From NCBI GenBank assembly GCA_964016885.1, contig OZ024743.1, forward strand, positions 328,600,001 through 328,664,000: a DNA stretch of 64,000 bases, in the 5' to 3' direction. The position numbers were made by a program, and so were the translations under genes. This document shows positions 1-59,790 of the stretch, piece after piece. The notes below the pieces were generated by a model that saw only the letters and a list, made by a program, of their open reading frames with translations, ran no database searches and was not told the origin of the DNA. Source of the stretch: Eledone cirrhosa (lineage: Eukaryota). The first letter of the stretch is position 1. Each line of letters opens with the position of its first letter.

Positions 1-390
1 TCTATGTAGTTTATACTTGGAGTAATAATAAATCAAGAAAGAAGAGTGACATGGTTTGCTATACAATAAGGGTTTTATTCACATTGCTGACAATTGTTTC
101 TCTGAACTGGTAGGTCTAGAGATCGCTACCCGCCTGATTTTGCGTCAATCGATGCAAGGATATACACAGGCATGGTTACTATATATAGTAGCCATGCCTG
201 TGTATATCCTTCATTCTCGCATGCTCTGATGAATAGACTGGTTATAACAAAATATTGGCGATCGATTGACGCAAAATCAAGCGGGTAGCGATCTCTAGAC
301 CTACCAGTTCAGAGAAACAATTGTCAGCAATGTGAATAAAGCCCTTATTGTATAGCAAACCATGTCACTCTTCTTTCTTGATTTATTATA
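1..390. mobile_element. Fold-back PLE pseudo-LTR remnant: arms ~24-152 and ~261-388 are inverted, with an inner palindrome at ~154-211
   Basis: Reverse complement of 24-152 matches 261-388 with 2 mismatches. Ends in (TA)n, contains an HHR, and has a homologous copy at ~48425-48612. Confidence 0.75.
217..335 (+). ncRNA. Type I hammerhead ribozyme with a very long stem II insertion
   Basis: tcgcatgct-CTGATGA(226-232)-...actggt...accagt...-GAAA(314-317)-caattg-TC-agcaatgtga. Stem I pairs and stem III is the palindrome caattg. Confidence 0.7.
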
Positions 391-1511
391 TATATATATA
401 TATATATATATATGAAACAAAACAAAACACAGGAAGCAAAATTAGACAGTTATATTAGGTTCACGCTTATATATGTAGATCCCGAATTAAATCGGGACTA
501 ACCGCAGTCAATAAAATACTCAATACATTAGTAGAGTGTAAACATCATTATTTAATATAGAAATGGCTTCTACAGGACTAGAACTGTTATCAGGATTACC
601 AACGACTTACTATATCACCCTTCTTTAACTCTCCTTTAATTATCTTTTAACTCTTCTTTAACTCTCCTTCAACTCTTCTTTAACTCTTCTGCAGTCATTC
701 GTAATGTAACGCTTATCTTCTCCTGGATCAAAAGGATTCAATTTCTGAGCAGATAAATGATGATTCTTAGCAGACGAGACATATTTCTTTACTGAACGTC
801 ATCGCCCTAAACCCATCAATAACACACAAGTTCTTTGATAAAGCACAACGATAAATGTATAAATTACCACTAAAAAACTGAAGACATTGTAATTGATATA
901 TATATATATATACAGTATATATATATATACAGTATATATATATATATATATACAGTATATATATACAGTATATATATATATACAGTATATATATATATAT
1001 ATATATATATATATATATATATATATATATATATATATATATATATATATAAATATACATGGGTGTGTATGATTGTGTATAGAAGATTATATTAATAAAA
1101 GGAATTCCAACTTTGTCTGATTTACTCGTTTTATTTATATATATATATATATATATACATATATATATATATCAATTGCAATGTCTTCAGTTTATATATA
1201 TATATAAATATATATATAAGTGTGTGTGTGTGTGTGTGTGTAAATGATACGTATATATATATGAATATACATATATATATATATATATATATATATATAT
1301 ATATATATATATATAAATAGGCAAATAGACGGAGTGAGTGAAGAGGGAGGGAAAGAGAGAGAAAGGGGAGGGAGAGTGATTTATATATATATATATATAT
1401 AGTAATAATAATAAATTTGAAGACTAAAATCCAAAGAGGGCTCGATAATGATAAATATATATCAAATATATAAGAACCGTAGAGCAAATATTTATTAAAA
1501 TAACAGATTAA

Positions 1512-1562
1512 AGTTTAAGCAAAGAATCGCTGCTTTCACCCTTAACGGGATCTTCTGAAACT
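1512..1562 (-). ncRNA. HHR variant (core CAGAAGA) in the PLE 3' pseudo-LTR
   Basis: agttt-CAGAAGA-t-ccc-gttaa-ggg-t-GAAA-gca...tgc-TT-aaact. All three stems pair. Inverted copy at 4304-4354. Confidence 0.65.
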
Positions 1563-1649
1563 AACAAAGCCAATCTGTAAACGCAGAAGTGGATATTTCA
1601 AAAAACGTTGCAACCGGAGGAAGACGAAGACGATACTTTGGTTCGTGGA

Positions 1650-1912
1650 AACGTTCGCTGGCAAAGAACGGGAAAAAACGAATATAATACGTCATTAATA
1701 GGAGCGGTGAAAAACAATTACCTGCAAAGACAGAACCACGTTTATGGTATAAAAGAGGTCGTAGACTAATGTTCTCTTAGGTGGTGCATAGAGACGTTCT
1801 CTGGCAATGAACGAAAAAAAAAACGAAGATAATACGTCATATGTGAAGCGTGGAGAACAATAGCACGCAAAGACAAAACCACGTAAATGGTATAGCAGAA
1901 GTCGTAGACTAA
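1650..1912. repeat. Diverged direct repeat, two ~120-bp copies, inside the PLE 3' UTR
   Basis: acgttcgctggcaaagaacg...gtcgtagactaa recurs as acgttctctggcaatgaacg...gtcgtagactaa. Confidence 0.7.
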
Positions 1913-2445
1913 AATTCTAACTAGGAGACCGAATGAATCTCCGCTTCAGAGTTAAGAACAAATACAATACAGAAGTAATAGAAATAAATAAATACATACA
2001 CGCAAACAAATACGTACATACACAAGCATACGCAAAACACTTGTGAGTGTGTGTATGCGTGTATACAAATAAATAAATAATTATATAAACGTATATAAAT
2101 AAATAAATACGTATATAACAAGCGCACACACATACCTACATGCAAATACACGAATGTTCGGAGACGTAAGTCAACCAAAACATATACACACACCCTACAT
2201 ACGTACGAACCTGCATACTCGCGCAGACGCAAAACTCCCGAATACACATAGCCAAACCATATGTACCAGAATATATAAAAATATACGCCATAACATAAAC
2301 AATCAAATATACGTACGAGAAGGTATGCGTACCTTCACAAAACATACGGGTAATATATACTTACCTATGCAAATAAGTAATGGTATAAACAAAACATATA
2401 CTTAGCTCCCACATCAAGACGTAAAATATCCACGTATAGATCGTA

Positions 2446-57400: not shown

Positions 57401-57658
57401 TATCCATATATATATATATGTGTGGTAAGGAACCAGATGAACCATAACGCACCAGAGTACTCAATACTAAGGGTAGTAGAGTGGGTAATAGGAAAAAGTA
57501 TGACCCCGACGGCAGAGCTCAACCCGTTTCGACGGCTATTTCTGGACCGAAATAGCCGTTATGGTCCATCTGGTTCCTTACCACATTTCCTTCGTTATAT
57601 ATATACATATATTTATATATAATATGAGATCAAAAGATGGTTAAAAGAGTTCCATGTA

Positions 57659-57725
57659 TTTTATTATGCGCATTTCAAAAACAAATATCATCATGGGATG
57701 ATATTTGCGTTCTCATCAGATAAAA
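57659..57725 (-). ncRNA. Type I HHR with long stem II
   Basis: tttat-CTGATGA-gaac-gcaaatatcatc-ccat-gatgatatttgt-tttt-GAAA-tgcgca-TA-ataaa. Confidence 0.85.
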
Positions 57726-58029
57726 TAGGGAGACATGATATGAAGCTTAAAAAACACTTGCGAGCAGTGAAGTGTTAAATCAACATATGAAAAATAAAGT
57801 AAGATGGATATATGAGATTGGGAAAAAAAGGAGGGGGGGGGGCTAGGAAAAGGTAAGGAAGAAAGAAAATAAAGGATGACGGGGGAACAGTATAAGAAGG
57901 AAGGATGAGAGAGGAGGAGAAATGAGTGAGAGAGAGAGAGAGAGAGAGAGAGAGAGAGAGAGATAGCCTTTAAAACTGAGAAAACACTGTCTCACAGAGA
58001 GAACAGAGAGAACGGAACTATATATATAT

Positions 58030-59193
58030 ATTACAATTCAAAAATTAAAAAATATATGATCAACACTGTGTTTTTTTTTTTTTTGCAAAATGACAATTTT
58101 TTTTTTCTTTTAGCCAGATAGAAATACCTTAATTCAAGTACATATAGTCCGTCTGTATCGATCTAGAGAATTTTAAATATTAAATCTATACTTACAGACG
58201 TAAAATGGCAACTGCCTGGTGCCTAGACAAGTTTAAATTTCAAAATTCAAACCTTTTCAGCAGATCGGGCGGAACTTCAAAACATAAACCTGTTTCACAA
58301 GGGATGTTATACTAATGAAATAATTAATTAATTACGGAACAACTATTTATAAAATAATTATTAGTGAAGTAATCAATTTTCTGTGATTCGGTAGGCACCC
58401 AGAAATTAAAATCACTTCTCCTAAGATAATATCTTAAGACTGATCTGTCGCAAGCCTAATACATGTGCTTTTGCACACGACCTTCTCAGCATTCTGGCTC
58501 ATATCCATGGCGCTAGAAATAACAGCCGTGAATATGTGATTATGAATTCAGCTCAACCGTAGGAGCAGATAATTTCACTTTAGTAGTCAGTTACAAATAT
58601 TAAGCTCTAAGAAAAATACTTCTGAGCATTACATTACAATTAAAAAATTAAAAAATATATGATCAACACTACTGTGTTTTTTTTTTTTTTGCAAAATGAC
58701 AATAATTTTTTAGCCAGATAGAAATACCTTAATTCAAGTACATATAGTCCGTCTGTATCGATCTAGAGAATTTTAAATATTAAATCTATACTTACAGGCG
58801 TAAAATGGCAACTGCCTGGTGCCTAGACAAGTTTAAATTTCAAAATTCAAACCTTTTCAGCAGATCGGGCGGAACTTCAAAACATAAACCTGTTTCACAA
58901 GGGATGTTATACTAATGAAATAATTAATTAATTACGGAACAACTATTTATAAAATAATTATTAGTGAAGTAATCAATTTTCTGTGATCTTCGGTAGGCAC
59001 CCAGAAATTAAAATCACGTCTGTAAGTATAGATTTAATATTTAAAATTCTCTAGATCGATACAGACGGACTATATGTACTTGAATTAAGGTATTTCTATC
59101 TGGCTAAAAAATTATTGTCATTTTGCAAAAAAAAAAAAACACTGTAGTGTTGATCATATATTTTTTAATTTTTCTTAGAGCTTAATATTTGTA
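58030..59193. repeat. ~600-bp tandem duplication followed by an inverted arm (59018-59193), between (TA)n tracts
   Basis: attacaatt.aaaaattaaaaaa.atatgatcaacac at 58030 and 58632; inverted copy of ~58592-58800. Confidence 0.8.
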
Positions 59194-59240
59194 TATATAT
59201 ATATATATATATATATATATATATATATATATATATATAT

Positions 59241-59790
59241 ATCAACTAGAAATTGATTGACATATAAATAAACATATGAAACAATCACAGGGGATAATTT
59301 GTAAAAGTTTGTAAGCACACATAGCTATGTTAGGTAACTAAATAAAGTTTAACCAGAACTTCAAAAATAGATACCTTATAAATTGATTAATCTTCCTTGT
59401 ATATATTTCATTAAAGAAATATATTTCACCAATTAATCGATTGGTAAACGACAGTATCCAGATCCTGGATTTTCAACAAGGAAGAGGTCCAAGGTCGTTT
59501 ACCAATCGATTAATTGGTGAAATATATTTCTTTAATGGAATATATACAAGGAAGATTAATCAATTTATAAGGTATCTATTTTTGAACTTCTAGTTAAACT
59601 TTATTTAGTTACCTAACATAGCTATGTGTGCTTACAAACTTTTACAAATTATCCCCTGTGATTGTTTCATATGTTTATTTATATGTCAATCAATTTCTAA
59701 TTGATATAAAATGCTCGGATCTATTCATTAGAATCTTGGAGCATATTTTACGGGTGATATGGCGCATGTCTATCTGGCATGACACCCTTA
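59241..59790 (+). mobile_element. Fold-back pseudo-LTR remnant (arms 59241-59451 / 59495-59707) with the 3' half of an HHR
   Basis: ~210-bp inverted repeat; accaat..attggt-GAAA-tata-TT; GCTC..GAGC hairpin at 59713-59742. Confidence 0.7.

Follow-up and report, generated by a model that had tools for sequence, protein, structure and literature searches.

The standard layout of a Penelope-like element (PLE) insertion includes an inverted, 5'-truncated copy, and tandem or inverted insertions may carry at one end an optional extension of 30-40 bp, the tail (PMC8557442, PMC3846280). For the Poseidon element of Anolis (PAc), Frangieh et al. found in vitro that both strands are nicked and extended and that two internal start sites of the reverse transcriptase (RT), lying in an AC-rich stem-loop, bound the tail; RNA 3' of the start was required, hammerhead cleavage was dispensable and the binding motif was left unmapped (PMC11167929). 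The subject here is a 64,000-nt stretch of Eledone cirrhosa DNA, hereafter the window (assembly GCA_964016885.1, contig OZ024743.1, positions 328,600,001 to 328,664,000, forward strand), which is AT- and microsatellite-rich animal DNA (35% GC; 213 tandem-repeat rows) and contains fold-back insertions of Hydra-clade PLEs. Their 3' ends cluster 0-10 nt 5' of either of two hairpins, a doubled motif with covarying structure and a characteristic place ahead of the open reading frame (ORF). Judging from the sequence comparisons, this stem is probably a cis-acting RNA signal that places reverse transcription in Hydra PLEs, with the RT docking on the hairpin and starting just 5' of it.

The locus shares with the described layout an inverted 5'-truncated copy beside the main copy, a one-sided extension and (TA)n targets, but its tails (63-162 nt in the window, 57-75 nt in the metagenome loci described below) fall outside the published 30-40 bp and are accounted for by the spacing of two hairpins. 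As in PAc, two discrete classes of ends, in Hydra genomic ones, bound the tail; whereas the PAc starts lie inside an AC-rich stem-loop within the ORF, the Hydra ends are found before the ATG, in the AU-rich linkers that precede the stems on their 5' side. Protein motifs, hammerhead and (TA)n insertion agree with the Hydra clade of PMC8557442; the passages and supplement text searched there describe neither the motif nor a connection with copy ends. The word 'stem-loop' is absent from the main texts of PMC8557442 and PMC3846280, as is 'hairpin' from PMC3846280 and the supplement text of Craig et al. (PMC8557442). Nor was the motif, or a link between it and copy ends, found in the literature searched, which included text of PMC4209133, PMC7229834, PMC8557442 with its supplement and bioRxiv 2026.07.22.740005, with older reviews, Repbase notes and figure images outside its scope. 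The one-sided tail and the two internal RT start sites are thus already published; what is new is the doubled covarying hairpin and its link to copy ends.

A sequence-only reading of the window had claimed that one arm of each fold-back stops just short of a hairpin present in the longer arm. All six stems that it listed lie at the coordinates claimed, and a further stem belongs to copy 2 of family B (families are lettered in Table 1). All eight arms that it listed end just 5' of an RCTC...GAGY stem, at a gap of 0-8 nt counted from the last matching base, including the arm ending at 389 that had been called probable, for which the visible part of the stem is ACTC...TA-GA only and the rest lies outside the window. 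The two arms that end at GAATTC (19928 and 43080) belong to independent insertions, with inverted arms of ~198 and ~700 nt. Six of the eight ends fall by eye on ATA or TAT, as had been noted to be usual, and both family-B ends on TCT. For an unmasked point taken at random, the probability of such a stem at 0-10 nt is p = 0.007, which gives P ~2e-14 (computed for 8 of 14). Three solo ends (14790, 48616 and 58027) likewise precede a stem by 2-5 nt. Wherever coding sequence is present, the stem-side end is the element's 3' end in the sense of the ORF; the stem-side ends are the start of the target-primed complementary DNA (cDNA) and the variable junctions are internal fold-back centres. Ends were not spread evenly over AT microhomologies, neither in the window nor in reads nor in other organisms.

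In the twin priming of L1 elements, primings on opposite strands yield an inversion, the second primer acting at variable internal points so that the arms barely overlap. The fold-backs share the two primings on opposite strands but differ in that both arms copy the same 3' region from fixed, structure-defined points; variable second priming was not seen. The proposal that a hairpin defines the end, in place of random twin priming, thus holds up in the window, in reads and in metagenome ends. Its other half, that the hairpin marks the second priming site, does not: there is a tandem pair of hairpins, and a hairpin also defines the long arm, which stops 2-6 nt before the second of the two; this one is not copied and so cannot be seen in the insertion. 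What appears as the tail is the distance between the hairpins.

The window elements are Hydra-clade PLEs by their ORF and motif features, the protein motifs and the class with a C-terminal endonuclease (EN) being those defined in PMC8557442. A single ORF with RT plus a GIY-YIG EN at its C-terminus is recognisable by eye at 2446-4263 and, broken, at 31646-33781. The motifs RWK and DKT are conserved across the homologue alignments; DKT occurs in both ORFs and RWK in the 31634 frame, the N-terminus of family A being missing. Both ORFs also carry by eye the CxCX5C linker and the CxxC and CxH of the EN, without CCHH, and the cysteines are invariant in the alignment. A Pfam scan of the Hydra ORFs assigned no family. 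Canonical type I hammerheads lie in the pseudo-long terminal repeats (pLTRs) of the window (31378, 38583, 35649, 35525 and others), and most window ends lie in (TA)n. EN remnants of the same type (12245-12685 and 20131-20418 on the plus strand, 42380-42143 on the minus strand) fix, with the ORFs, the sense strand of four families, each of which proves to be Hydra-type by its coding remnants (33-46% identity in tblastn). The families had been called unrelated, which is right for their DNA but not for the proteins of these four. Fold-backs H, E, G, I and F are without coding remnant and are placed in the clade tentatively, by the common motif and, for H, also by its hammerhead.

A homologue search gave 1706 matches, with identities of ~40-56% in the best 120 of the 1706, and an alignment of 57 proteins was used to retrieve 77 Hydra loci from metagenomes. 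Their ORFs are 43-55% identical in three quarters of random pairs, and 41 hammerheads were found in them. No Hydra relatives were found in viral contigs, where as a control a loose pattern of hammerhead plus GAGCACT gave chance matches only; the full motif occurs in 0 of 122 of these as against 69 of 80 in Hydra loci. Copy ends were tested on these 77 metagenome relatives and by aligning reads and contigs to one family of the window (C, 31300-31900).

A rule-based comparison of the metagenome loci yielded 30 copy ends once one duplicate insertion had been removed. A hairpin follows 21 of them at a distance of 0-12 nt (20 of these at 0-10 nt), hairpin 1 in 12 cases (site 1) and hairpin 2 in 9 (site 2), where uniformly placed ends would give 1.68. 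Where the reference carries both hairpins (n=6), site-2 ends lie 2-4 nt before hairpin 2 (SD 0.8) and 36-48 nt after hairpin 1 (SD 3.9), and the tighter distance to hairpin 2 makes the downstream hairpin the ruler for these ends. In two metagenome fold-backs (L018 and L064) site 1 is where the inverted arm stops, and the main copy ends at site 2 or close to it. Insertion into (TA)n is seen for these ends only in part.

The two discrete end classes that bound the tail recur in metagenome loci, in reads and contigs, and in window copies. Distal copy ends of family C in the window fall at 31530-32, 2-4 nt before hairpin 2. Among the matches listed, 25 contigs (X1) and 246 and 233 raw reads (X8, X9) have loose ends after 31464, at a distance of 3 nt from hairpin 1, and continue there in (AT)n, and a second organism has one contig ending at 31528 and one at 31532, both at site 2; reads of the window species thus end at site 1, and contigs at both sites. 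Contig depth drops across site 2 from 136k to 8k (X1) and from 35 to 1.5 (X5), that is 16- to 23-fold. Strong read ends at 31434/31437, 31520, 31627, 31659 and 31843 were considered as copy ends and rejected, as they coincide with AATT sites of libraries of restriction-site-associated DNA (RAD).

One could also suppose that the hairpins serve another role, in translation, ribozyme control or promoter function, and that ends cluster beside them only because nicked (TA)n pairs most readily with the unpaired AU-rich linkers. The six bases that precede GCTC are indeed ~70-93% A/T, hairpin 2 lies near the start codon and most of the window ends sit on ATA/TAT. However, ends drawn at random from ATA/TAT on the long arms would give 0.76 matches in 9 where 8 were observed (0 of 2,000,000 simulations were as high), and ATA/TAT sites in the metagenome loci would give 4.68 in 30 where 21 were. 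Many matching ends are also without ATA/TAT and have non-repeat flanks: only 11 of the 30 metagenome ends are on ATA/TAT, and several matching ones have non-microsatellite flanks. Among the matches listed, of 17 ATA/TAT sites in 31340-31640 only the two hairpin-adjacent ones have repeat-flanked ends. We regard this explanation as very unlikely, and return to the hairpin as the signal that places the start.

The motif, GCUC-Y(variable stem-loop)R-U(U/A/C)-GAGC-ACU.U, is a clade-wide bulged stem-loop conserved in structure and not merely in sequence. The metagenome loci hold 143 copies of GCTC-N6-30-GAGC outside their longest ORFs (126 kb) and 23 within these (145 kb), and ACT comes next in 106 of the 143; 114 motifs in untranslated regions (UTRs) against 19 expected are a six-fold excess. 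With a 3' bulge of 2 nt, the pair next to it in the inner stem is Watson-Crick in 83 of 88 distinct hairpins (C-G 59, U-A 23, A-U 1), as against only 3-14 of 88 when the bulge is set at 0, 1, 3 or 4 nt, and the bulge reads UU, UC or UA in 83 of them. An inner stem of 3 bp forms in 31 of 48, where permutation gives 7.9. The C-G/U-A switch in hairpin 1 requires six changes on the protein tree, four to five of them forced by well-supported branches (a quick tree, and FastTree with two long rows excluded). The variant ACTC...GAGT is confined to window families and is without enrichment in metagenome UTRs (25 against 18 expected). Rfam gave no matches at E 0.5 in eight loci, and in the window the 150 matches listed of 267 were microsatellite or fold-back noise, all under the gathering score.

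Within a pLTR the order is hammerhead cut, hairpin 1 after 36-57 nt, hairpin 2 another 59-83 nt on, and start codon. RCTC...GAGY occurs within 200 nt of 30 of the 41 metagenome hammerheads, its GCTC...GAGC form 36-57 nt past the cut, and both hairpins are present, at that spacing, in 22 of 32 rule-flagged 5' pLTRs. ORF-proximal regions hold two motifs in 18 of 27 cases, one in 5 and none in 4, as against one in 3 of 197 control ORF windows. In the published Hydra consensi of Craig et al. we recognise the motif by eye in three of six (twice in Hydra-1_Ajap, before the ATG) and a degenerate form in one; the two that are without it stop ~36-47 nt past the hammerhead, where hairpin 1 would start. 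Three solo hammerhead pieces of the window, 48179-48289 (+), 50358-50263 (-) and 57719-57620 (-), run into (TA)n 43-64 nt past the cut, which is the expected site 1.

How could such a hairpin place the ends of copies? The RT-endonuclease would bind the hairpin and so set the single-stranded AU-rich RNA just 5' of it in the active site; a nick in AT-rich DNA would then prime, with a microhomology of 1-4 nt setting the exact base only. If both nicked strands prime, usually one per site, a fold-back would result whose longer arm retains hairpin 1 and the spacer as the tail. As the signal would lie 3' of the start, it would never be copied by its own cDNA and one hairpin would be lost per round, save by tandem read-through or a circular template. 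Such a loss would account for the requirement, already known, of more-than-unit copies; to explain such copies Cervera and de la Peña have proposed circular templates (PMC4209133). The hairpin would give a handle on how PLE RTs, the closest relatives of telomerase RT, choose their start on a template; the only in vitro study known (PMC11167929) found internal initiation and mapped no RNA signal. If the model is true, both start sites of any Hydra family become predictable from sequence, the tail is accounted for, as is the requirement that templates be tandem or circular, ORF-less derivatives become assignable and their ends annotatable, and a minimal RNA is named for work on binding, structure and RT-based insertion.

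The polarity of the elements bears on a different view, in which the template is the antisense RNA and the hairpin a template boundary before which the RT stops, the end then being joined to the target, much as the strand-joining of the sequence-only reading would have it. Telomerase RNA offers an analogy, with its anchor elements, including template-flanking stems and a boundary stem 5' of the template that stops copying. There, too, a related RT copies an internal RNA stretch limited by an adjacent protein-bound stem; the Hydra hairpin, however, would set the start, its place being 3' of what is copied. An antisense template has been proposed for Adineta PLEs in the discussion of PMC3846280, PLE RTs are sister to telomerase RT (PMC8557442) and the stem folds on either strand. 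Nevertheless, variable truncation is on the 5' side of the ORF, as in sense-template target-primed reverse transcription, hammerhead and motif share the polarity of the ORF strand (in the window the bulge polarity agrees with it), sense RNA is active in vitro in the Poseidon experiments of PMC11167929 and long arms would need read-through of hairpin 1. An antisense template is therefore highly improbable in our view, and a start on the sense RNA is preferred.

Several observations weigh against the hairpin as the signal that places the start. Besides the two exceptions already named by the sequence-only reading, which are real (the arm at 11870 stops 45 nt before its stem, and both arms of the fold-back at 57597 pass theirs), three more fold-backs miss (59195, 17231 and 29014), so that 8 of 13 fit and 5 of 13 miss, and the cases listed by that reading had been picked for a visible stem. 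The arm at 59195 stops 13 nt past GAGC and has an internal deletion; 17231 and 29014 belong to one hammerhead-bearing family without canonical stem. Among the metagenome ends 9 of 30 miss (one reciprocal row, one 11-14 nt before hairpin 2, two in the hammerhead, one in hairpin 1 and four elsewhere), and the 21 matches come from only ~16 families by our count. Raw-read depth is steady at site 1 (1481 against 1550, X8), RAD reads are uninformative on site 2 with an AATT cut site at 31517, and the loose-end evidence comes from the 23 rows listed of 387. The pairing of one arm with each site, found in ~10 of 11 informative fold-backs, is suggestive, hairpin-less arms being under-ascertained. Single hairpins are often no stabler than shuffles (z -0.2 to -4.2). 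The printed Poseidon template (PMC11167929) is by eye without GCUC...GAGCACU. Finally, the variants leave the folding strand undecided, wobble-compatible and incompatible changes numbering 2 and 2 in the outer stem and 14 G-U and 10 A-C in the inner one.

This last point leaves room for a hairpin that acts as DNA: a longer cDNA would be made first, and the GIY-YIG endonuclease would recognise a single-stranded or extruded stem-loop and trim or resolve it a few bases away. Craig et al. explain the tail by EN-mediated resolution (PMC8557442), the D. virilis EN required the tail for cleavage, as quoted in PMC11167929, and genomic ends cannot separate a start from a cut, just as the G-U and A-C counts favour no strand. 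Set against this, in vitro the Poseidon tail is bounded by sites at which RT starts (PMC11167929), the 0-10 nt scatter and short microhomologies match priming better than a nuclease cut, and in two window families the stem is closed by G-U on the sense strand. We therefore consider trimming of DNA unlikely, and keep to a hairpin that acts in the RNA.

The Poseidon template also shows by eye two GGC...GCC mini-hairpins with an AC-rich run after each, the reported 111-118 start lying in the second run (PMC11167929). A doubled signal of opposite geometry is possible in Poseidon.

The preferred mechanism can be extended to a model in which Hydra PLE RNA resembles a telomerase RNA with two seats: each half of an RT-endonuclease dimer would sit on one hairpin of a single transcript and prime in concert on opposite strands, and RT stutter at the start site would add short repeats, so that some of the flanking microsatellites, for example the (TC)n of family B, would be products of the element and not its target. 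The dimer step would draw on an AlphaFold2 model given in PMC11167929, and the model as a whole seems doubtful to us. Non-TA repeats beside ends start with the last two to four letters of the element, namely (TC)n, (AAAT)n, (AATTT)n and (ATTT)n, at 19873-19927, 43081-43150, 14709-14794, 59790-59830 and, in L017, after 2609; both family-B arms have (TC)n between element and (TA)n. Such repeats may reflect either target choice by microhomology or RT stuttering.

Two of the non-fitting cases have features of their own. The inverted arm at 11869 ends one letter short of a hammerhead cut (after 14195; ribozyme core 14140-14195 by eye), and the ribozyme of this fold-back, with one core mutation per arm, was missed by a strict hammerhead scan. 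Possibly the arm reflects a ribozyme-cleaved RNA end as template, a single case with a 2-nt microhomology to (CA)n. Hammerhead-cut ends were not accepted as a third end class, given one window case and 0 of 30 metagenome ends (two inside the ribozyme). The other case is the hammerhead-bearing ORF-less family at 16265-17231 and 28286-29014, whose two fold-backs end at the same base, followed only by a degenerate GAGT-containing stem.

Table 1. Hydra-clade elements of the window, with their hairpins and arm ends
Feature	Position	Strand	Remarks
Family A hairpin 1	1440..1485	-	GCTC, long inner stem-loop, TC bulge, GAGC; tail continues to 1401
Family A ORF	2446..4263	-	5'-truncated Hydra-clade RT with C-terminal GIY-YIG (homology, clade motifs)
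Family A inverted short arm	4268..4378	+	stops 2 nt before hairpin 1, into (TA)n
Extra family A end	14790..14854	-	3 nt before hairpin 1; flank is (AAAT/AAAAT)n array
Solo family A tail	60201..60300	-	hairpin 60241-60286; distal end identical to that of family A
Exception fold-back, inverted arm	11869..12251	-	45 nt short of hairpin at 14240; into (GT)n
Hairpin 1, long arm of 11869 fold-back	14240..14260	+	Hydra EN remnant 12245-12685 on same strand
Family B copy 1 inverted arm	19928..20125	-	8 nt before hairpin; into (TC)n(TA)n
Family B copy 1 hairpin	22052..22085	+	tail to ~22181; EN remnant 20131-20418 (+)
Family B copy 2 hairpin	40428..40461	-	from stem scan
Family B copy 2 inverted arm	42380..43080	+	8 nt before hairpin; into (TC)n(TA)n
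Family C pLTR type I hammerhead	31378..31425	+	cut after 31425
Family C hairpin 1	31468..31488	+	read and contig ends after 31464 into (AT)n
Family C hairpin 2	31535..31612	+	GCTC 31535-38 pairs with GAGC 31606-09 round long inner domain, then ACT; upstream of ATG
Family C broken full-length Hydra ORF	31646..33781	+	three frames; RWK, DKT, CxCX5C, CxxC, CxH
Family C copy ending at site 2	27327..27486	-	hairpin 1 at 27369-27389
Family C copy ending at site 2	38575..38736	+	hammerhead and hairpin 1 (38672-38692)
Fold-back H	35426..35835	both arms	hammerhead per arm; short arm (35426) ~5 nt before ACTC...GAGT 35755-35774 (+), 0 with one mismatch; tail to 35835
Fold-back E	39364..39549	both arms	hairpin 39422-39445 (-); short arm (39549) 5 nt before
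Fold-back, family-C relative	49893..50182	both arms	hairpin 50120-50140 (+); short arm (49893) 0 nt before
Exception, family E fold-back	57421..57597	both arms	both ends past hairpin 57459-57482 (-)
Family F tandem and inverted arm	58027..59195	-	hairpins 58604-58627 and 58551-58566 at a spacing of 61 nt; tandem copy stops 2-5 nt short of hairpin 1; inverted arm does not fit
Fold-back G	59238..59790	both arms	hairpin 59713-59742 (+); short arm (59238-41) 4 nt before
Fold-back I	1..389	both arms	short arm (389) 1 nt before ACTC (23-20, -); 3' strand of stem past window edge
Fold-back I solo copy	end ~48616		4 nt before stem

Further ORF-less ends with a hairpin and a distal end into (TA)n lie at 19688-19727 and 19784-19805, at 27581-27606 and at 518-537. 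At 14790-16143 the extra family-A end and a PLE of another type face each other head to head with (TA)n between them; the other PLE has an ORF at 14881-15705, a CX4CXXC linker and a hammerhead-like core near 15940. No relatives of this second PLE type were found in genome contigs; a related end lies at 26454-26703 of the window.

Other repeats lie among the PLE pieces. Two hammerheads ~340 bp apart (7132-7163 and 7471-7502, minus strand) form part of a retrozyme-like tandem repeat without the hairpin. A composite tandem unit of 279 bp with a G-U-closed hairpin (GCTC...GAGT) occurs at 29749-30333, 34540-34591 and 35836-35991, and one piece of it is fused with an RT ORF (35890-37692; Pfam RVT_1) where that ORF is truncated; we take the ORF to be RTE-like. 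An inverted duplication of ~580 bp (18170-18751 and 22423-23029), made up of a non-LTR 3' fragment and a microsatellite flank, encloses a 3.7-kb cluster of PLE pieces.

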